DNA of 64,000 nucleotides from Capsulimonadaceae bacterium. GTDB taxonomy: Bacteria > Armatimonadota > Armatimonadia > Armatimonadales > Capsulimonadaceae. The stretch spans positions 8,903 through 72,902 of the forward strand of contig JARLGU010000058.1 in NCBI GenBank assembly GCA_031292625.1, given 5' to 3'. Shown one piece after another: positions 1,652 to 40,595 of this stretch (position 1 is the first letter of the stretch; each line of letters starts with the position of its first letter). The position numbers and the translations under genes were made by a program. A model generated the notes under the pieces. It was not told the DNA's origin and made no database searches. It saw nothing but the letters and a program-made list of their open reading frames with translations.

Positions 1652-2572
1652 ATGCTGGCCTACTCGATTTTGTTGCATACGGATATACCTCAGTTTGAGG
1701 TTCTATTCCGGAACATCTATGACGCTGAGAATATCTATGCAATACATCTTGATGCGGATGCAAGCCACTCCGACCGGAAGAGAGTGGAGGATTTCGTTCA
1801 TCCCTATCATAACGTGCATCTTGTGCCCCCGCTTCGTTGCATATGGGCCGGCTGGTCGCTGGTCGCCGCCGAACTCAGAGCAATACGGCTTCTGACATCG
1901 ATCGACCCCAGCTGGCGTTTCTACGTCAACCTGAGCGGCCAGGACATGCCGCTGGCAAGTCAGGCCACAATCCGTCGTACGCTCAGCGCCCACGACGGCA
2001 GCAACTTCATTGAGATTGCGGATCCTACTACGCATTTCTGGGTTCCAAAGCGCTATGAGTTCCTTTACGTCGAGCAGTTTCTATTCGGAAAATCTCAAAT
2101 CCGCATTCCGCGCTATCATCGCCCATTCTTGAAAGGGGTTCGCTGGTATAGCGGGTCGCACTTTAAGATTCTGAGCCGCGACTTCTGCGATTTTCTGGCG
2201 GATAAGAAGAATATTGCAAAATACGAGAACTTCTTCCGATTCTCGCACATGGCGGATGAGCAGTTCTATCAGACCGTAATCATGGACACCGAATTCGCGC
2301 ACACCGTGATCAACGACAACAAGCGTTATCTTCTCCATGCCGACAACACAGCCCACCCTAAATGGCTGACGATCGAAGACTTTGATGTGCTCCGGGACAG
2401 CAAGAAATTGTACGCACGCAAGTTTGCGACCGGAATTAGCAGTGAGCTCATTCGACGCATCGAATCCGACCTCTTGAACAAACAAGGCGACGAACCGGTC
2501 GCCTCGAACGCTCAGTCTGTCGCTCCTCCTTCCGCGCTCCAAGGGACACGCGTTCTGGACAGCGCACTCTGA
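1652..2572 (+). CDS. Glycosyltransferase family 14-like (core-2/I-branching 'Branch' domain) protein
   Basis: 306 aa. LAYSILLHTD...IYAIHLDADAS...WAGWSLVAAELRAIRLL...YVNLSGQDMPLAS...GSNFIE matches the bacterial Branch/GT14 motif order. GGAGG lies 7 nt upstream of the ATG. Confidence 0.75.
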   Translation: MLAYSILLHTDIPQFEVLFRNIYDAENIYAIHLDADASHSDRKRVEDFVHPYHNVHLVPPLRCIWAGWSLVAAELRAIRLLTSIDPSWRFYVNLSGQDMPLASQATIRRTLSAHDGSNFIEIADPTTHFWVPKRYEFLYVEQFLFGKSQIRIPRYHRPFLKGVRWYSGSHFKILSRDFCDFLADKKNIAKYENFFRFSHMADEQFYQTVIMDTEFAHTVINDNKRYLLHADNTAHPKWLTIEDFDVLRDSKKLYARKFATGISSELIRRIESDLLNKQGDEPVASNAQSVAPPSALQGTRVLDSAL

Positions 2573-2721
2573 ACGAACGGCGGCAGGATCGCGCCCCGAT
2601 GGTCCAGAATTGCCCGGTTAGCAACCACGCCTTCAATTGGTTGCCCTAGCAGCGGAGCGAACGGTACGCGCACTGCTTCCCCAGTGGTACAATAGGATGA
2701 CCAGGGGGATCTGCGTCGTCC

Positions 2722-3990
2722 ATGCCCGAAAGCCAAACAGATAGCACCAGCGGCGCATTAGGCGCCGATACCTCGGGGGCCCATGATCCGGCGCCGAGCT
2801 TCTATATTCGCGTCGGCTTCTTTACAAGCCTCGGAGTGGTTTTTCTCGCGATCTGCGCGCTCGCGGCTTACAAACTGCTTGCAGCGTTCGCGGATGTCGC
2901 AACTCCATTCGTCGTTGGAACGTTCCTCGCGCTACTGCTTGATCCGGTCGCGCACCGCCTCGAACGCACGGGTCTGCATCGAACATGGGCGATAATCGCG
3001 GTCGTTTCGAGCACGGTGCTCATTCTGGTCGGCCTCGCCGCTCTCGTTATCCCCCGCTTCGTAGAACAGGTTAACAACCTCGCGACCAATGGTCCCGGCT
3101 ATATCATTCACCTGCAGACAGTGATCGATTCATGGCTGAAGCACGATCATAGGATCGGACCGATTGCAATGCCGCTGCCGCACAGCACGCACGACGTATC
3201 GGTAAAAGTGTCGGCGCAAATCGCAGCGACACTGCAAGGTTCAGCCGGCAACTTGATTGGTATCTTGAGCGGTTCCGCAACCACGATTCTGCAGATGGTC
3301 GTCAGTCTGCTGGTCATGTTTTACGTGTTGGCGGACACCGAACAACTGATGGGACGTGCGCTATTTCTTGTGCCAAGCCGATACAGGGCCAACATCCAGG
3401 TCTACAGCCGGGACATCGGCAAGGTCTTCTCTGACTATCTTCGCGGCATGCTGATCGTCTGCTCGTTCTACGGGATCACGGTCATCGCCGTGCTCTATGC
3501 GCTCTCGATCTGGACGCGCAGCCTCGCCGGATATGCTCTGCTGGTCGGGGTATTTGGAGGCGTGCTCTATTCCATCCCATACGTCGGCGCGTGCACGATC
3601 GCGCTGATGACGTTCGTGATCGGCTTCACCGCTGGAGGGCTTCCAGGCGGCATGGCCACGATGCTTTGCGTCCTGGCGGTCAACTGGACCTACGACAATC
3701 TGATTACGCCTCGCATCGTCGGAGGAGGCGTCGGTCTCCACCCGGTCGCCGCGATCATGGCGTTGGCGCTCGGCGGACGATTGGCAGGCTTCTGGGGACT
3801 ATTGCTCTCGGTGCCTGTCGCGGCAAGCATCCAGGCCGTCCTCTTCCGAATATTCCCCAGGCTCACGAACCCCACCCCGGACGCATTGCTGCGCAGCGCT
3901 CACACGGTCGAAGCCGCCGACGCTGCAACGCCTCCCCGTTCCCGTCGCAGACGGCAGCCCAAGCAGCCCGCGACACCGGGCGAGAGTTGA
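2722..3990 (+). CDS. AI-2E family (PerM/UPF0118) membrane transporter
   Basis: 422 aa with multiple hydrophobic helices. Overall layout (FVVGTFLALLLDPVAHRLERTGLHRTWAIIAV ... VPVAASIQAVLFRIF) is typical of AI-2E family permeases. Confidence 0.75.
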   Translation: MPESQTDSTSGALGADTSGAHDPAPSFYIRVGFFTSLGVVFLAICALAAYKLLAAFADVATPFVVGTFLALLLDPVAHRLERTGLHRTWAIIAVVSSTVLILVGLAALVIPRFVEQVNNLATNGPGYIIHLQTVIDSWLKHDHRIGPIAMPLPHSTHDVSVKVSAQIAATLQGSAGNLIGILSGSATTILQMVVSLLVMFYVLADTEQLMGRALFLVPSRYRANIQVYSRDIGKVFSDYLRGMLIVCSFYGITVIAVLYALSIWTRSLAGYALLVGVFGGVLYSIPYVGACTIALMTFVIGFTAGGLPGGMATMLCVLAVNWTYDNLITPRIVGGGVGLHPVAAIMALALGGRLAGFWGLLLSVPVAASIQAVLFRIFPRLTNPTPDALLRSAHTVEAADAATPPRSRRRRQPKQPATPGES

Positions 3991-4030
3991 GAAGAGAATC
4001 GGGTGAAGCTAATCGCAGCGACGGGCACGC

Positions 4031-4531
4031 CTAGCGATTTCGCACACCGAGGGCGCCGAGCTTGGCGGAATGCGCGTGGCAAATCGCGATCGCGAGCGCG
4101 TCGGCCGTATCGTCAGGTTTAGGGGCCGCTTTCAGCCCGAGCAGACGCGTCACCATCCACTGTATCTGCTTCTTGTCAGCCGATCCCGTCCCCGTCACAG
4201 CTTGCTTCACCTGCATCGGGGTATATTCGGTCCAGGGAAGATTGTGCTGCGCGATGGCCAGAAGAATGACGCCGATCGCGCGGCCGACGGAGATTGCGGT
4301 TGTTTCGTTCTTGCTGAAGAAGAGCCGTTCGGTAGCGACGGCGTCGGGGGAGTGTTTGTCAATCAAAAGATTGACGGCATCGTAGATTTGTGACAATCGC
4401 TCGATGACCGGGGTTTCCGGAAAGGTAAGGATTGCCCCGAAATCGATTGGAATCAGCTTGCCGGATGTATCCTGGCGAACGATCCCGTAGCCGGTTGTCG
4501 CGGTTCCGGGATCGATGCCAAGGATAATCAC
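4031..4531 (-). CDS. ruvC: Crossover junction endodeoxyribonuclease RuvC
   Basis: VIILGIDPGTATTGYGIV...ERLFFSKNETTAISVGRAIGV...TGSADKKQIQWMV...DTADALAIAICH. I place the start at GTG 4531, which forms a GTGA overlap with the stop of the upstream gene. The Arg-rich 51-aa N-terminal extension in the ORF track looks spurious. Confidence 0.9.
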   Translation of the reverse strand: MIILGIDPGTATTGYGIVRQDTSGKLIPIDFGAILTFPETPVIERLSQIYDAVNLLIDKHSPDAVATERLFFSKNETTAISVGRAIGVILLAIAQHNLPWTEYTPMQVKQAVTGTGSADKKQIQWMVTRLLGLKAAPKPDDTADALAIAICHAHSAKLGALGVRNR

Positions 4532-5646
4532 AGCGTCACCGTCTTCCCCGTTCGGGCAGATTCGTAAACGGCGCAGACGACTTCTACCGCGTGGAGACCG
4601 GCAACGCCATCGACTGCGGGGGCGCGCTTGTCGCGAACGGCGGTTACGAATTCGGCGAGCTGCGCCTGATGCGCGTCGCCCCACTCCGTAGACTGCGTCT
4701 CGCCCTCCGCGGAAGCGTCTTCCTCCGCCTTAAGCGTCTCCGCTGTCTTCGTGCCGCCCTGAGCCACCTGCAGGGCGTGGTGTGCAATCACCTGACCGCC
4801 CGTGACGTCAACCCGCGTCTTCGTGGCAACCGTATCCAGCACATCGCCGGAAATAACGACGCTGCCTGCCTCGCCGTGCAAACTGAGGGTCGCCGGAAAG
4901 CCTGGATAGGCGGCCGTGGACGCCACAAGATTGCCGATCGCTCCATTGGCGAACGTCAGTGTCGCGCAAACCACATCCTCGACCTCGATCCGCTTATGAG
5001 CAGCGGTGCGGGCAACGGCGTAGACCGAAACCACCGGGCCACAAAGCCACCGCATCAGGTCAACCGTGTGCACGCCCTGGTTCATCAACGCTCCGCCGCC
5101 ATCGAGCGCCCAGGTGCCTCTCCAATCGCCGCTGTCGTAATACTCCTGCGTCCTGTGCCATTTGATCTGCGCCTCAACGAGCACGATACGGCCCAATGCG
5201 CCGTGATCGACCAGCCCCCGGGCCTGAATGGACGCGGCGTCAAAGCGGTGCTGAGAAATTACGCCAAGGGGGAGGCCCGTTCTCCGCTGAACATCGTTAA
5301 GGGCGTTGCAAGCGGCGACGCTGATGTCCATCGGCTTCTCAACGATTGTCGGCCGGCCAGATAATAGCGCCTCAATGCCGATTTGAGCGTGCATCCCGCT
5401 CGGCGTGCAGACCGAGACGACATCTACGGCCGTATCTTTAAGAAACGTGTTCAGACTGACGTGCGTATGCTCGGGCGAGATGGAATGCGCCTTCGCGAAC
5501 TGCTCTGCGCGCTCGGGAACAACGTCGCAGCAAGCGGCAAGATGCGCCGCGGTCAATCCTTCTATCGCCCCAGCGTGCGTCGCTGAAATCGTGCCGCAGC
5601 CCACGATACCAAAGCCGACGCCGTTGCGGCTGTCAATATTACTCAC
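4528..5646 (-). CDS. Gfo/Idh/MocA family NAD(P)-dependent oxidoreductase
   Basis: 372 aa. N-terminal Rossmann motif GFGIVGCGTISATHA and family-typical length. ATGA overlap with the upstream gene at 5643-5646. Confidence 0.85.
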   Translation of the reverse strand: MSNIDSRNGVGFGIVGCGTISATHAGAIEGLTAAHLAACCDVVPERAEQFAKAHSISPEHTHVSLNTFLKDTAVDVVSVCTPSGMHAQIGIEALLSGRPTIVEKPMDISVAACNALNDVQRRTGLPLGVISQHRFDAASIQARGLVDHGALGRIVLVEAQIKWHRTQEYYDSGDWRGTWALDGGGALMNQGVHTVDLMRWLCGPVVSVYAVARTAAHKRIEVEDVVCATLTFANGAIGNLVASTAAYPGFPATLSLHGEAGSVVISGDVLDTVATKTRVDVTGGQVIAHHALQVAQGGTKTAETLKAEEDASAEGETQSTEWGDAHQAQLAEFVTAVRDKRAPAVDGVAGLHAVEVVCAVYESARTGKTVTL

Positions 5647-34977: not shown

Positions 34978-35007
34978 CAGACAGTCTCAGAGGCAAAGGA
35001 AACTCAT

Positions 35008-35889
35008 ATGAGAAACTGCAAGGGATTTACGCTTATCGAACTACTCGTTGTGATCGCTATCATTGCCATCCTGGCCGCGATTCTATTCCCGGTGTTTGCC
35101 GCAGCGCGGGAAAAGGCGCGCGGCGCGGCATGTCTATCGAACCTCAAACAGCTGGGGTTGGCGTATTCGCAGTATGAGCAAGACTATGACGAGACGGTTC
35201 CTTCCGGCACGAACCCCTACGGAGGGGGGAACGGCTGGGCGGGACAGGTCTATCCCTACGTCAAGAGCCTCAATGTCTTTCTGTGTCCGGATGACACGAC
35301 GCAAGACGACGTAATCTCATACGCGACCAACGCCAACATGGTCGGCTACACGGCGGCGATTACGCCGATCCCGGCTACGATTGCAGTCCTGACGAGCCCA
35401 TCGTTAACGGTACAGCTATTAGAAGTGGTGAACTGTTCCGGTTTTATCGTTTCCACGAGCGATGTCCAGCACTCGCCCTGCGCGCTAGGGATCTCCATAT
35501 TGAGTTCAAACACGCTCAACGGCGGAAACTCAGGGAACGGGACAACAACGTTGACGTCGCTCAAATATGCGACCGGCTTGTTTGCCAATGCTTATGCCGT
35601 TGGAGATACACAAGACCCAAATCCAGCCGATATCACCGGAACGAATTCCTACTTCACGTCGCCGGATGGCCGCCACCAAACGGGGTCAAACTTTTTGATG
35701 GCTGACAACCATGCCAAGTGGCTCAAGGCAGCTACCGTCGGAGCTGGCAGGGACAAAGTCATCAATGGGGTTAATTATCCCGCATCTTGTCCGCCCAGCC
35801 GCCTGAATGGCATCGCGCCGACGACGACCTGTATGCAAAGCACCACGGGCGCTGCATTCCAGTACAGCGCGACATTCGCGCTGCATTAG
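35008..35889 (+). CDS. Prepilin-type H-X9-DG (DUF1559-like) protein (cassette D)
   Basis: [93 protein letters not shown]. Confidence 0.85.
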
Positions 35890-36144
35890 GCTTTGCCGCG
35901 ATGACGGAAGCGCTAATCCAAACGCGACGGCGAGTGACATTGCGGCGCAGTTCCCGGACCATCCGATAGCGACCATCGCACAGGCGTACCAGGATATTCA
36001 TGGGGCGACGCAGCCAGTAAGTGCCAGCGTGAACGCGGAGGAACCTAGCCCTATTCCAGAAGGTCCGGCGCCGCAGTATGGAACCCTACGGCAGCGCACG
36101 AGATAAACGCGCAGCCTCCGCAGACAACGCCATCGCCAACTGAA

Positions 36145-38775
36145 ATGCCGCGCGAACCTGCGCAGCCCGAACAAGCGCCCGTGCGCACCACGCAGGATAT
36201 CGCAGAGGCAATGGTCGCGAACCACCCGGAGATGAACACACCTGAGCATGTCGCCGGGATTAAAACGTTGCTCGATACGCAGGCGGCGCAGCGGGCGAAG
36301 GACAACAGCAGACCAGCGAGCGAGTTCCCGGATGCGGTTTACCATGACGTGACGGGGGAGAGTGCGCCTGGCGCGGAGTCGCCCGACGTGCTGTCTCAGC
36401 ACGGACAGGACATTCAGCCCATTGGGCATGGATCATTTGGCCCAATCTACGATCAGTTCAAAGGCGATGACCATGGGGCAGTTCAGCATCTCATGCGCGT
36501 CAAGGCAGGAGAGGCGGTTGCGGCGCTGCATCATCCTGAAATCGGCGATATTGATTTGCCCTGGGGGAAAACAGATCAGGTTAAGCCCAACGGAAGAACG
36601 CCCAAGGGTGGCAACGGACTGTCGCACATTATCTACGACCGACCGGACGGAACGGAGATTGCCAACAACCTTCAGAGAGACCTGAACGATATGAAGCTGG
36701 TTTCCCGGAACGCCTATCGTGCGGTTCTAGAATCCGACGGCCATTGCTCGATTGTAAGTCTTACACATGGGCGCGACCAAAAGACGTGGCTGTTGTCGGA
36801 GTTTTCGAGGAATGATAAGCCTGCCGCCGAGCGGTCGATTGGCGTCCCCGGCAATCCTGCCGAAGGCAGGACGGCTGAACATCCTTCAACCGCAGGCTCT
36901 AATTCCAATATACCCGAGCCTGCCGAAAATGACACACTGTTCCAGTCCGCCAAAGGCAAAGCTAAGTTGCCGCCAACTTATTACTCTCCTGATGACATCG
37001 TTCTGACCGAGCGCGATCAGGACATGCATAAGGTCGCCGATATTGCCAAGCGATATAAAAATCATGGCGAGCCTGCCCCTTCCATAATCACTAAAAGCGA
37101 TGGGGAGAATCAGGTTATGGACGGTCATCATCGAGCGTTGGCGCTTGAGCAACTTGGACGAAATGTTCCCACTATTGGGATCAGGAAGGATGTCTTTGAC
37201 AGTCTGAAAGAACAAGGACATGATCCTATTGATATTCTCGCCGCAGTTTACAAGTCAGCAGGGTATGGACGCGAGGTTTCTTACCTTCAGTTCAAAGGGG
37301 ATGACCACGGGGCAGTTCAGCATTTAATGCGCGTCCAGACAGGGGAGGCGTTAGCTGCGTTGCATCATACTGACGTTGGTGATATTGATTTGCCATGGGG
37401 CGACGCAGACGGCACCAACGGAAAAGGCGGTCATGGTCTTGCACACATTATATACGATCATCCGGATGTAGATCCATACAAATTGCAAGAGATGATTGAC
37501 GGGATGGAGGTTGTGAAAAAAAGTCCGAACCGGATTATATTACAGCCTCCAGATGCTACTTCTGTTGGTGTAATCGCTCTAGAAAGAAGAGGAACTGCAA
37601 AAAATTGGCTATTAACTGCATATAACAAGCCTGCAGCCGAGGGGAGTAGTGGCGTCCCCGACAATCCTGCCGAAGGCAGGACGGTTGAACATCCTTCAAC
37701 CGCAGGCTCTAATTCCAATATACCCGAGCCTACCAAAAATGACACACTTTTTCAGCACGGCCACAACCCGCAGCTAGACACGCCGGAGTTCAAGCAGTGG
37801 TTCGGTGACAGTGATTCGGTTAATAAAGATGGATCTCCGCAGGTTATGTACCACGGGACAAGGGACTTCAAAGGCCACACGTTCGATCAGAACAAGCACG
37901 GGGGGCTGTTTTCATTTACTGACAGTCCAGACGTAGCCGAACGATACGCCGAAGGCAACGGCGGATACCGATCATATACAGGGACGCTCGTTAAGGTTTA
38001 CAGTCCCAATGGTGGCGGGGCTGAAATATACTCGCCCGTATCTGACGGTAGCCACCTTGGCGTTAATTACGTAGGTGAAGTCAGCGGGAAGATCCTTACC
38101 CCGTCTGACGTTAACGCAATGGTTGAAAGTGGTACTGCTGAAACGACAAAAACGGGCGCATCAGTAATGCCTGTTTACATTAAGACCCATGCGCTAGATT
38201 TAACATCAGCCGAAGGTCGATCAGTGCTTGGTAAGCTAGACGCTCAGCACAATACAATTGCATCAAGAATCATAAATAATGCGAAGTCGGGGTATTTTAA
38301 TTGGTCTGAAACGCAGCACGAGCCTGCATGGAAAACATTCCAAAAGGTGATAAACCCGCAGCTAAAACAGCTTGGTTACGATGCTATCAAATATAATGAC
38401 TGCGGTCACACGACTACGGCTGTTTTCGATCCGAAGCAAATCAAGTCCGCTATCGGCAACCGTGGCACGTTCGACCCCAACGACGCGAACATACTGCACC
38501 AGTCCGCCAAAGGCTCCGTGACCTTCCGCCCTGAGGATGGTAAAGCCGTCGTGCGCATGCTGCAATCCGCTGACATATCGACGGCGGTTCATGAGATTGC
38601 GCACGTGTGGCGCAGAACGCTCTCTGACGAGATGCGCGCCGTTCGAGACTCACTATGGCATCAAGGGTCGATGCGTCCCGCGCCCACCCTACTCGTCGAC
38701 CAACTCGCGCAACGGGACTGCTCCGGCGGATCAGCAAGATGCGATCACCCTGCTGATCCGCCGGACGGCGCTTGA
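36145..38775 (+). CDS. Truncated polyvalent protein of phage/conjugative-element type: duplicated nuclease-like module, ParB-like domain, ART-like module, HExxH metallopeptidase motif
   Basis: 876 aa. Two copies of GSFGPIYDQFKGDDHGAVQHLMRV..GEA.AALHH..(I/V)GDIDLPWG...G(N/H)GL(S/A)HIIYD, a module I recall from polyvalent proteins (PBECR/LPD-type). MDGHHRALALEQLG (ParB/Srx DGxHR). VMYHGTRDFKGHTFD...GLFSFTDSPDVAERYA (ART-PolyVal-like). AVHEIAHVW (HExxH). The last ~45 aa are GC-rich and non-homologous-looking, so the 3' end is probably broken. GC visibly drops across about 36.9-38.5 kb. Confidence 0.6.
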   Translation: MPREPAQPEQAPVRTTQDIAEAMVANHPEMNTPEHVAGIKTLLDTQAAQRAKDNSRPASEFPDAVYHDVTGESAPGAESPDVLSQHGQDIQPIGHGSFGPIYDQFKGDDHGAVQHLMRVKAGEAVAALHHPEIGDIDLPWGKTDQVKPNGRTPKGGNGLSHIIYDRPDGTEIANNLQRDLNDMKLVSRNAYRAVLESDGHCSIVSLTHGRDQKTWLLSEFSRNDKPAAERSIGVPGNPAEGRTAEHPSTAGSNSNIPEPAENDTLFQSAKGKAKLPPTYYSPDDIVLTERDQDMHKVADIAKRYKNHGEPAPSIITKSDGENQVMDGHHRALALEQLGRNVPTIGIRKDVFDSLKEQGHDPIDILAAVYKSAGYGREVSYLQFKGDDHGAVQHLMRVQTGEALAALHHTDVGDIDLPWGDADGTNGKGGHGLAHIIYDHPDVDPYKLQEMIDGMEVVKKSPNRIILQPPDATSVGVIALERRGTAKNWLLTAYNKPAAEGSSGVPDNPAEGRTVEHPSTAGSNSNIPEPTKNDTLFQHGHNPQLDTPEFKQWFGDSDSVNKDGSPQVMYHGTRDFKGHTFDQNKHGGLFSFTDSPDVAERYAEGNGGYRSYTGTLVKVYSPNGGGAEIYSPVSDGSHLGVNYVGEVSGKILTPSDVNAMVESGTAETTKTGASVMPVYIKTHALDLTSAEGRSVLGKLDAQHNTIASRIINNAKSGYFNWSETQHEPAWKTFQKVINPQLKQLGYDAIKYNDCGHTTTAVFDPKQIKSAIGNRGTFDPNDANILHQSAKGSVTFRPEDGKAVVRMLQSADISTAVHEIAHVWRRTLSDEMRAVRDSLWHQGSMRPAPTLLVDQLAQRDCSGGSARCDHPADPPDGA
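36841..36945 (+). repeat. 105-bp direct repeat, copy 1 (within the polyvalent gene)
   Basis: ggcgtccccggcaatcctgccgaaggcaggacggctgaacatccttcaaccgcaggctctaattccaatatacccgagcctgccgaaaatgacacactgttccag. Near-identical to 37651-37755 (a handful of mismatches). Confidence 0.9.
37651..37755 (+). repeat. 105-bp direct repeat, copy 2 (within the polyvalent gene)
   Basis: In-frame duplicate encoding GVP(G/D)NPAEGRT(A/V)EHPSTAGSNSNIPEP(AE/TK)NDTLFQ. It is part of a larger ~0.5-kb domain duplication (36427-36945 vs 37288-37755). Confidence 0.9.
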
Positions 38776-38801
38776 CACGACATGGGATTCCTGTGTAGAA
38801 T
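38772..38801 (+). promoter_or_regulatory. Candidate tRNA-Ser promoter TTGACA-18-TAGAAT
   Basis: TTGACA 38772-38777, TAGAAT 38796-38801. The tRNA 5' end is at 38824. Confidence 0.5.
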
Positions 38802-38823
38802 AGAACGGTTTCCAGAGACGCGT

Positions 38824-38915
38824 GGAACGGTGTCCGAGTTGGTCGAAGGAGCACGACTGGAAATCGTGTAACGGGTTTCCCCCGTTCGTGGGTTCGAATC
38901 CCACCCGTTCCGCCA
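38824..38915 (+). tRNA. tRNA-Ser (anticodon GGA), encoded CCA
   Basis: GGAACGG acceptor pairs with CCGTTCC. Anticodon stem CACGA/TCGTG with loop CTGGAAA. Long variable arm ACGGG-TTTCC-CCCGT. T arm GTGGG-TTCGAAT-CCCAC. Discriminator G plus CCA. A hairpin CCCGCCG-ctaa-CGGCGGG follows. Confidence 0.9.
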
Positions 38916-39038
38916 TTTCCTGCCGCGCCCGCCGCTAACGGCGGGTCGGGGCTGGATGCATGCGCAGGTGAGCATTCATCAACGGCCGCGTGCTCCAACG
39001 ATGCCGCGACTTTCGACGCCTTGAGAGAACGGTCATTG

Positions 39039-40595
39039 ATGCCCGGAACCCGGCTTAGCATGAATTCACGTCCAACCTCATCTCCCCAACTCGCCAAGCG
39101 AAAAACCTGGACGAGATCCTTGCGCCTAGCCGTCGTGTTGTCCGTTATCATCGTTGCCGCCTTCATGCTCGTGAGCGCCTATTGCATATACGCAGGCAAC
39201 CGGGCGGCCGACAGTTCCCGAATGGCCGTTATCCAACCGGCGATGACCGGCCGGTCGATCGTTGTAGTTTCACCGCACCCCGACGATGAAGTGCTGGGTA
39301 CCTCCGGGCTCTTACAGCAGGCGCACAAGCGCGGCGTCCCCGCCCACGTTGTTTTCGTAACGAGCGGCGACGGATTTAAGTTCGGGGTCTCACGCTACTA
39401 CAATAAAGTCGCGCCAACTCCTGCCGATTTTAAGAGCTATGGCGAAATGCGCATGCATGAGTCCCAGCAGGCTGTTCAGGCATTGGGTTTAAGCGCAAGC
39501 GACGCCACCTTTCTCGGCTACCCGGATCGCGGAACGATGGCAATGTGGCGCGATCACTGGAACACCGACGATCCTTTCGTTTCGCCGTACTCGCGCTCAG
39601 ACAAAGTGGTCTATGAGAATGCCTACGATCCCGGCGCGCCATTCTGCGGACATTCGCTTCTATTCGATCTGCTCGGCGTTCTCCGCAAGGATCGGCCGAC
39701 GGACATCTACGTGACGCATCCCAAGGACGATCACGACGACCATTCAGCCGTGTCGGCGTTTACGACCCTCGCATTCACCATTTTAAAACAGTCCGCAGAG
39801 CCCTGGGCTCGCGATCTGAAGATCCATTACTACCTCGTCCACCGCGGAGACTGGCCCGTCCCCCAGGGATACCATCCCCGTGAGCAACTCGCGCCTCCTG
39901 CGCAAATGCTCGCGTGCGATACCCAGTGGAACCGTCTTCCGTTGACCGAGCGCGAGGAGAACGTTAAGCGAGCGGCCATCGAAAGCTACAAAAGCCAGCA
40001 AGAGATGATGAGTCGCTTCCTCGAAAGTTTCGTTCGCAAAGACGAAATTTATGGCGACATCCCGGCGCAAGAGGCGATCATGGACAGCCAGAAGCCTGGC
40101 CCATACGCAATGGCCTCGGGGCGCAACGCGTGGAAAGGCGAGACTCCCGCCGCCATCGATCCGGTCGGCGACACCATCCTGCTCAAGCTTCCCACGGGGC
40201 TGGATATTTCGCGAATCTACGAGCGCCACGACGACGCCAACCTTTATGTTCGCCTAGACGCGAATTCGCGCCTTATTCCGGAAGCCCATTACGACCTTCA
40301 CATTCGCGCCGCCGATCTCGCAGGCGTCTCTCCATCCGAGGAAACGATCGTATCCGTCACTCCGAAGTCGATCAAAGAATGGGGAACCGTAAGACTGCGC
40401 TCAGGTGAAATGGTCAAGTGGCACGATCGAACCCTCGAGGTCACGATCCCCTTAGCGGAACTCGACGTCCCGCGCGACGGCATCGTGTTCATCGAGGCAA
40501 TCACCCGCTTGTCCAAAATGATCTGCGACCGCACCGGCCCTCGCTCGATCCGCGTCCACATCGACCCCACCCCGCCGTCCAGCCCGCTTTCTTAG
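39039..40595 (+). CDS. PIG-L/LmbE family deacetylase with N-terminal TM anchor and a large uncharacterised C-terminal region
   Basis: TM segment LAVVLSVIIVAAFMLVSAYCIY. IVVVSPHPDDEVLGTSGLL and HPKDDHDDH are LmbE-type zinc motifs. About 250 C-terminal aa have no family I recognise. Start is ATG 39039 or TTG 39021. Confidence 0.7.
   Translation: MPGTRLSMNSRPTSSPQLAKRKTWTRSLRLAVVLSVIIVAAFMLVSAYCIYAGNRAADSSRMAVIQPAMTGRSIVVVSPHPDDEVLGTSGLLQQAHKRGVPAHVVFVTSGDGFKFGVSRYYNKVAPTPADFKSYGEMRMHESQQAVQALGLSASDATFLGYPDRGTMAMWRDHWNTDDPFVSPYSRSDKVVYENAYDPGAPFCGHSLLFDLLGVLRKDRPTDIYVTHPKDDHDDHSAVSAFTTLAFTILKQSAEPWARDLKIHYYLVHRGDWPVPQGYHPREQLAPPAQMLACDTQWNRLPLTEREENVKRAAIESYKSQQEMMSRFLESFVRKDEIYGDIPAQEAIMDSQKPGPYAMASGRNAWKGETPAAIDPVGDTILLKLPTGLDISRIYERHDDANLYVRLDANSRLIPEAHYDLHIRAADLAGVSPSEETIVSVTPKSIKEWGTVRLRSGEMVKWHDRTLEVTIPLAELDVPRDGIVFIEAITRLSKMICDRTGPRSIRVHIDPTPPSSPLS

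Follow-up and report, generated by a model that had tools for sequence, protein, structure and literature searches.

Phage P1 DdrB/DarB proteins are packaged in the virion and injected; they unite a ParB-like domain and, at the C-terminus, a metallopeptidase for which processing of the protein itself has been proposed (PMC5512222). The survey of polyvalent proteins by Iyer et al. 2017 (PMC5512222), whose model of injected polyvalent proteins is itself mostly prediction, also described polyvalent genes that reside in a host genome with no mobile element around them, read them as acquired from the remnants of invasive elements, and proposed a defensive host use for polyvalent genes outside mobile elements. 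The locus analysed here lies in a 64,000-nucleotide stretch of DNA (the window; contig JARLGU010000058.1 of assembly GCA_031292625.1) from the chromosome of an Armatimonadota bacterium of the Capsulimonadaceae. Between a DUF1559 pilin-like gene and the gene of tRNA-Ser(GGA), about 2.75 kb of DNA (from ~35,890-35,915 to ~38,640) represents an internal piece of a phage-type polyvalent protein gene, with a surviving open reading frame (ORF) for 876 amino acids (aa). We consider it likely that this ORF is a recent, silent and decaying relic of such a gene.

Ends, frameshift and composition of the gene fragment

The only relative collinear with the relic DNA was P0043, a 1069-aa metagenomic protein encoded on a 6-kb ENA contig. 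Residues 367-407 of P0043 matched window positions 35915-36037 in another reading frame (46% identity, E 1e-6), whereas residues 466-576 matched positions 36049-36375 in the frame of the ORF and thus correspond to the N-terminus of the ORF product. Further downstream, residues 595-743 matched the ParB-like segment of the ORF and residues 729-776 the start of the HExxH module. Beyond the matching span, P0043 has 366 residues before and about 290 after. The upstream piece comes from the same ancestral gene, therefore a frameshift must have occurred within 36049-36103: the two frames are open together only there, and a single insertion or deletion must be in that interval. The frame of the ORF is already open from 36049 (908 codons in total). 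Through this one frameshift the first ~70 surviving codons are out of frame with the rest, and in comparison with P0043 at least ~366 residues are missing from the N-terminus of the relic. The lack of a native N-terminus and the presence of an out-of-frame upstream fragment had been proposed in a first-pass annotation, made by a model from the sequence of the window, and the match of P0043 residues 367-407 to the upstream piece agrees with this proposal.

On the left side, the C-terminus encoded by the pilin-like gene could be aligned, up to its final residue, with those of at least 36 paralogs, and the left junction is thereby placed at 35890-35915. The 366 leading residues of P0043 are replaced in the window by this intact pilin-like gene. 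On the right side, the homology ends inside the HExxH module. The remainder of the module (106 positions, including the HE.FARGFE.YL helix) was absent from all six frames of the window DNA, and no homology to any relative was detected in the read-through tail that follows the stub. The stop codon of the ORF, TGA (38773-38775), is inside TTGACA, the -35 hexamer of the tRNA-Ser promoter, and this promoter is conserved in the aligned same-genus genome. The earlier suggestion that the last ~45 codons are read-through was confirmed by these observations: 44 codons extend past the end of homology, their GC content is host-like, and they end in the tRNA promoter. The search for full-length relatives, recommended at the same time for placing the truncations, was productive as well, as P0043 together with a hidden Markov model (HMM) of the HExxH module set both truncation points.

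Two side observations concern the 3' end of the relic. The tail contains a strong hairpin (38722-38765), which directly precedes the -35 box of the tRNA-Ser promoter and has no T-run behind it; it may once have served the upstream operon as a terminator or insulator. A 238-codon antisense ORF (38450-39166, minus strand) extends across the 3' end of the relic, the tRNA and its promoter, and is almost certainly a spurious GC-rich open frame.

The host genome (G000) is a metagenome-assembled genome of 5.77 Mb in 65 contigs, 96% complete, in which the relic is present in a single copy. Four metagenome assemblies, all from one bioreactor study, reproduced positions 35000-36905 and 37702-39500, where they showed 0 differences and were covered as deeply as in the flanks, and their contigs broke only at the internal repeat of the relic. 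The agreement between the four assemblies shows that the frameshift and both junctions are not assembly errors.

The composition of the relic is foreign. Its core (36799-38604) has a GC content of 0.503, which is among the lowest 0.8% when 6314 windows of 1.8 kb from the genome are ranked, and the GC content at third codon positions is 0.50, compared with 0.66-0.72 for the genes nearby. Nowhere else on the 96-kb contig does a 1.5-kb window fall below 0.52 GC. The drop in GC noted in the first-pass annotation is thus real on the scale of the genome. The same annotation had reported no integrase, no duplicate of an attachment (att) site and no other phage gene, and the wider search led to the same result: the contig has no tyrosine integrase and no partial copy of tRNA-Ser (att), and nothing else of P0043 or of the genes of a family member's phage contig (see below) was found in the genome. 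The junction sequences are unique in the genome and no flanking direct repeats were found. The genome contains no Ku gene (PF02735), consequently capture by classical end joining is unsupported.

Domain content, relatives and internal repeats

A Pfam search found PBECR1 (PF18809) in two stretches of the 876-aa ORF, with a score of 61.3 bits vs the cut-off of 27.6. The two copies are 57% identical to each other at the protein level. The active site of PBECR1 consists of a His and a C-terminal Thr/Ser (PMC5512222), and the catalytic positions are inferred to be those occupied by His439 and Thr491 in copy 2, which would correspond to Arg166 and Ser218 in copy 1. Copy 1 deviates at both, as homologs have His at the position of Arg166 in 93% and Thr at the position of Ser218 in 90% of cases. 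The second confident match was to the ADP-ribosyltransferase (ART) domain ART-PolyVal (PF18760, Tox-ART-HYD2 clade), which scored 66.2 bits vs a cut-off of 31.2, and 71.4 bits with the excised segment. Polyvalent ART modules have an H-Y-D active-site configuration (Iyer et al. 2017, PMC5512222). Residues His570, Tyr678 and Asp746, whose columns are 97%, 85% and 100% conserved in 80 homologous ART modules, match this configuration; their assignment to strands 1, 2 and 5 follows PMC5512222.

Between the two PBECR1 copies is a segment that probably represents a ParB/Srx-like domain. It is 62% identical to residues 598-709 of P0043, and the DGHHR motif (a conserved active-site Arg after a Gly-rich turn, DGxHR-type) is invariant between the relic and P0043. 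No Pfam match was obtained with this segment. The profile matches were weak, though they all point to the ParB/Srx superfamily (phrog_1033 ParB-like, E 0.013; phrog_498, E 0.073; NCBIfam SerK, E 0.21). Also weak (E 0.06-0.9) were tblastn matches, some of them to genes that three unrelated phages carry under the annotation ParB-like nuclease domain or ParB-like partition protein. A profile search of the PDB gave no significant match, and an AlphaFold model from a two-row alignment had a pLDDT of 48.5, which is too low to use.

The HExxH (zincin-like) module is represented by a stub with the HEIAH motif at aa 816-820 (nucleotides (nt) 38590-38604). The His, Glu and His of the motif are invariant across 14 aligned modules. 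Many relatives have the module, and its consensus in them is ..L.Q.AKGA..F..DG.A.I.LL..AD.ST..HE.GH...(variable)...W.....HE.FARGFE.YL.EG.AP...L..F..F..WL..IY. In the polyvalent zincin peptidase as described by Iyer et al. 2017 (PMC5512222), an HExxH helix is followed by another helix, which supplies a Glu ligand. On sequence grounds, the module of the relatives fits this description of a metallopeptidase (MPTase), in which case the HE.FARGFE.Y helix, the part that is lost from the relic, should carry the third zinc ligand. Neither the stub nor P0043 gave a Pfam match or a significant match to any curated or solved zincin; the best PDB profile match of the module, to the HExxH region of thimet oligopeptidase, was not significant (E 1.3).

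These results can be compared with the modules named in the first-pass annotation. Its duplicated RNase-type module proved to be PBECR1, present twice, and its ART-like module proved to be ART-PolyVal, both above the Pfam cut-offs. For the proposed ParB/Srx domain the DGHHR motif is present and the domain call is probable, with weak matches and no Pfam match. The HEIAH motif is likewise present, but the metallopeptidase is not, since only a stub without the second helix remains.

An exhaustive HMMER search of 1.84 billion representative sequences (E <=1e-3) yielded 8206 relatives of the ORF, all of which fit the polyvalent class. The best of these are proteins of 1.7-5.8 thousand residues with at most ~44-49% identity to the ORF, and polyvalent proteins of 450-1100 aa are also among the relatives. 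The PHROG matches of the ORF are phage proteins with 1,664-4,846 profile positions. The 876-aa protein, for which NCBI annotates a product, is by its predicted domains a small, divergent member of the polyvalent protein class. The two PBECR1 matches, the ART-PolyVal match and the giant multi-domain relatives uphold the original assignment of the ORF to this class. A separate observation is that clustering at 90% identity groups the 876-aa protein under P0172, a 56-aa representative that is seemingly unrelated to it. This grouping is probably a clustering artefact, and it conceals the protein from searches based on representatives.

Neither a close donor nor an ortholog was found by a word-indexed search of 5.8 billion proteins, either with the whole protein or with the ParB segment alone. 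IMG/VR, queried with the 876-aa protein (P0001) and with P0043, the JGI metagenomes and the GTDB genomes contained no close donor, and there was no ortholog of the ORF in 40 related genomes. The possibility raised by the first-pass annotation as refuting its view, an intact orthologous gene of the same length and of native composition at this locus, was thus not encountered in these 40 genomes.

The two PBECR1 modules are a mosaic at the DNA level. Their N-terminal parts have 80-84% nucleotide identity with a synonymous divergence (dS) of 0.62, their middle parts are only 33-40% identical with dS saturated, and each module is followed by a linker block of ~105 nt, the two blocks being 94-98% identical with dS 0.08 and a nonsynonymous divergence (dN) about equal to dS. 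Each block folds into three hairpins side by side (z-scores -3.0 to -4.7), and each contains a weak promoter-like motif, GTGTCA-17-TATATT, on the minus strand. Where the stems differ, both substitutions are compatible with pairing, as G-U, on the antisense strand only. The linker block had no other occurrence where it was searched for, including an exact-pattern scan of IMG/VR, and no similar near-identical internal blocks were found in four other polyvalent genes. The linker peptide was also considered as a general inter-domain motif; this was rejected, as it is absent from 170 relatives. The motif TPEFKxWFG is the start of the ART modules. The simplest reading of the near-identity of the blocks is local gene conversion in the donor. 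It is improbable that the block was a functional element at the nucleotide level in the donor phage, either an RNA, structured or antisense, that is embedded in the gene and linked to the RNase modules, or a recombination homology "handle" for swapping variable RNase cassettes.

The neighbourhood of the relic consists of a LacI regulator gene, the pilin-like gene, tRNA-Ser and a PIG-L-family gene; the coordinates of the features are in Table 1. An Rfam scan detected only the tRNA above threshold. The tRNA-Ser(GGA)/PIG-L-family pair, which spans 38824-40595 of the window, is conserved in 9 of the 10 family loci examined. The PIG-L/LmbE-family protein is membrane-anchored, and the DNA upstream of the tRNA is variable among the family genomes (loci L007-L017). 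In the same-genus genome this position is occupied by genes for an ankyrin-repeat protein and an HNH_repeat protein. That genome is only ~51% identical in the neighbouring protein and is unsuitable as an empty-site comparison. A search for orthologs of the LacI gene was swamped by 153 paralogs. For the pilin-like gene itself, tblastn against the host genome gave 162 matches (E up to 1e-10), a number which indicates a very large DUF1559 family in this host.

Table 1. Positions (in the window) of the relic, its parts and its flanking features
Feature	Positions	Strand	Basis
Left neighbour, intact native DUF1559 pilin-like gene	35008..35889	+	Pfam and paralog alignment
Upstream piece of the ancestral gene, other frame, without own start codon	35891..36103	+	P0043 homology at 35915-36037
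Zone with both frames open, 55 nt	36049..36103	+	Stop positions in the two frames
Surviving open frame of the relic, 876 codons (876 aa)	36145..38775	+	ORF calling
PBECR1 RNase module copy 1, aa 96-222	36430..36810	+	Pfam, module comparison
Linker block 1	36838..36945	+	94% DNA identity to block 2, three hairpins
Probable ParB/Srx-like segment with DGHHR, aa 273-384	36961..37296	+	Weak profile matches, P0043 alignment
PBECR1 RNase module copy 2, aa 374-495	37264..37629	+	Pfam, homolog columns
Linker block 2, near-identical repeat of block 1	37648..37755	+	Repeat comparison, folding
ART-PolyVal ADP-ribosyltransferase domain, aa 545-776	37777..38472	+	Pfam
HExxH (zincin-like) stub, aa 777-832, module positions 2-56 of 162	38473..38640	+	HMM of 24 modules
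Read-through tail, 44 codons and stop, GC 0.64 (host-like)	38641..38775	+	Composition, end of homology
Strong hairpin in the tail just 5' of the tRNA promoter, 20-nt arms, ~-37 kcal/mol	38722..38765	.	Folding
Native tRNA-Ser promoter, TTGACA-18-TAGAAT	38772..38801	+	Alignment with same-genus genome
Native tRNA-Ser(GGA)	38824..38915	+	Synteny with downstream PIG-L-family gene, family-wide

Expression, competing explanations and origin

No promoter-like site was found before the ATG at 36145, and this ATG has no Shine-Dalgarno sequence, whereas such a sequence precedes three of the four pilin genes nearby that were checked. None of the defence-system models of PADLOC was matched by the ORF. The relic is accompanied by no delivery machinery or partner gene, and there is no immunity gene beside the ORF. 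In three small metatranscriptomes, nine exact pieces were found in the 16-kb span of 30-46 kb, and none in 35000-38800.

Several observations weigh against a decaying and silent relic. The frame of 876 codons is still open. Of the 28 ART columns with a conservation of 80% or more, 27 are retained, His570, Tyr678 and Asp746 among them, and PBECR1 copy 2 retains His439 and Thr491 in columns conserved to 93% and 90%; with these residues kept, a functional protein could still be made from 36145-38775. There is no terminator-like site between the LacI-regulated pilin gene and the ORF directly downstream, hence read-through transcription of the ORF is possible. The absence of transcript pieces is weak evidence, since only ~1.6 pieces would be expected by chance and the probability of finding zero is ~0.2, and the repressor-controlled pilin gene was without transcript pieces as well. 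Finally, no close donor and no empty-site genome were found in any collection searched.

The open frame, the conserved ART and PBECR1 copy 2 positions and the missing terminator can also be read as signs of a gene that was captured and is still used, so that the host, or read-through from the pilin operon, would express the 876-aa multi-effector, for example as a weapon against phages or plasmids. Such a use would have precedent in the host-resident polyvalent genes for which a defensive role has been suggested (PMC5512222). It is difficult to reconcile with a frameshifted 5' end that has neither a promoter-like site nor a Shine-Dalgarno sequence, with a C-terminus that is an accidental read-through into a tRNA promoter, and with the cut in the peptidase. 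The lack of an ortholog in 40 relatives, a composition that has not drifted toward that of the host, the lack of a PADLOC match and of transcript pieces, and the self-targeting nature of an RNase and an ADP-ribosyltransferase without an adjacent immunity or partner gene also speak against it. Taking these into account, continued use of the captured gene is unlikely, and the same degree of doubt applies to any expression or use of the 876-aa protein. Slightly less likely still is the explanation that the relic is the last remnant of a prophage or integrative element that had integrated site-specifically at tRNA-Ser(GGA) and of which the rest was deleted, so that the tRNA would be the cause of its location. 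tRNA genes are classic integration sites, and the relic ends 130 nt before the tRNA-Ser promoter. However, integrase-mediated insertion leaves the element at the 3' side of the tRNA, whereas the relic is 5' of the promoter of an intact, native and syntenic tRNA, on a contig without an integrase or a partial tRNA copy and in a genome without any other phage gene. As the relic lies upstream of the promoter of the intact syntenic tRNA and not at the 3' end of the tRNA, the tRNA-Ser neighbourhood is probably coincidental.

Two other explanations concern the boundaries of the ORF and the reality of the sequence. The ORF could be a complete, native short polyvalent gene with natural ends at the ATG at 36145 and the stop at 38775, as might be supposed from the existence of polyvalent relatives of 450-1100 aa and from the product annotated by NCBI. 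This is very improbable when the out-of-frame DNA upstream is collinear with the same relative, P0043, the HExxH module breaks at position 56 of 162, and the tail has host-like GC, a hairpin and an end in a promoter hexamer. A chimera of assembly or binning, with phage reads misjoined to a bacterial contig, might be suspected in a metagenome-assembled genome of 65 contigs that carries a segment with a composition unlike that of the host; with four assemblies of one study spanning both junctions at flank depth, free of differences and broken only at the internal repeat, its probability is close to nil. A decaying and silent relic is favoured by the frameshift, the lack of a promoter-like site and of a Shine-Dalgarno sequence, the stop in the tRNA promoter, the absence of an ortholog from 40 relatives, the undrifted composition and the absence of RNA pieces. 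Intact residues are expected of a young relic anyway, because the composition has not drifted toward the host and there are no orthologs; the long open frame and the intact catalytic residues thus most likely reflect youth, not selection. The first-pass annotation had left the choice between a domesticated and a decaying fragment. The evidence favours decay, for which the frameshift, the missing expression signals and the accidental stop argue, over domestication, with the reservation that RNA data are sparse and that the catalytic positions are still intact.

A history consistent with these results can be proposed. The full protein of the donor would have been well over 1,500 residues long, packed in the virion and ejected with the DNA, as modelled by Iyer et al. 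2017. The RNA, DNA and proteins of the host would have been the targets of its PBECR1 RNases, ParB-like nuclease/NTPase and H-Y-D ADP-ribosyltransferase, and the zincin-like peptidase module would have cut the polyprotein. What is lodged in the host chromosome is an internal fragment of the gene, with the 5' part lost, one frameshift, and the peptidase cut after the HExxH helix, and its frame continues for 44 codons through host DNA to the TGA in the -35 box of tRNA-Ser. It may have arrived as part of a prophage that was later deleted on both sides, or a piece of DNA may have been captured directly by an illegitimate event. Parts of aa 14-536 of the ORF are 28-41% identical to giant virion proteins of podoviruses, and a polyvalent-like ORF of a family member lies beside internal virion protein genes; on account of these two observations a phage-type origin appears more likely than a conjugative one.

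The phage-like region of the family member deserves separate mention. It occupies positions 2075-15149 of contig C714 (locus L022) in a related Armatimonadota assembly (G017), and contains three ORFs of note. One, of 1001 aa, matches internal virion protein families; another, of 1299 aa, is polyvalent-like and has the HExxH module in full; the third, of 1207 aa, has a colicin-type DNase domain at its C-terminus.

The relic alone is of little weight, being a well documented but ordinary gene relic. It is a clean, well-delimited case of an injected phage effector gene orphaned in a bacterial chromosome, in the poorly studied Armatimonadota, and it implies that phages with polyvalent proteins infect this lineage now or did so recently. 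For the databases it means that the 876-aa "protein" is chimeric, joining a truncated foreign gene to 44 codons of DNA that is non-coding in the host, and that a pseudogene-fragment flag is warranted. For experiments it supplies PBECR1 and ART-PolyVal modules with intact-looking catalytic residues, which can be expressed and assayed.

Comparison with known systems

The collinear relative P0043 shares four parts with the relic, all in the same order: the "PNAT..AQAYQDIHG" unit at the N-terminus, a unit of helices, the ParB-like domain and the HExxH module. In contrast to the relic, it lacks PBECR1 and ART modules and has both of its ends; its genomic surroundings gave no further information. 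PBECR1-type modules like those of the relic are present in gp69 of Burkholderia phage BcepMigl (a "DarB-like antirestriction protein" of ~4658 aa), in Pseudomonas phage Itty13 and in Bordetella phage BPP-1. These, however, are full-length genes in complete phages, located beside lysis or structural genes, and their likeness to the relic is limited to single modules. With DdrB/DarB of phage P1 the relic is tied only through domain classes; no direct sequence match between them was obtained, and the P1 proteins are functional phage parts.

As in the polyvalent proteins of Iyer et al. 2017, several unrelated effector domains (PBECR1, H-Y-D ART, ParB-like and HExxH) are combined in one polypeptide. 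Polyvalent genes of that survey are found in phage virion or late loci or in conjugation loci (type IV secretion system, T4SS). The relic is in neither, and fits the third, host-resident context. What distinguishes it from the host-resident copies reported there is the loss of the 5' part, the frameshift, the cut peptidase, a stop codon provided by a tRNA promoter, and no sign of host use. The relic is thus one more host-resident polyvalent gene of the kind already described, here shown to be broken.

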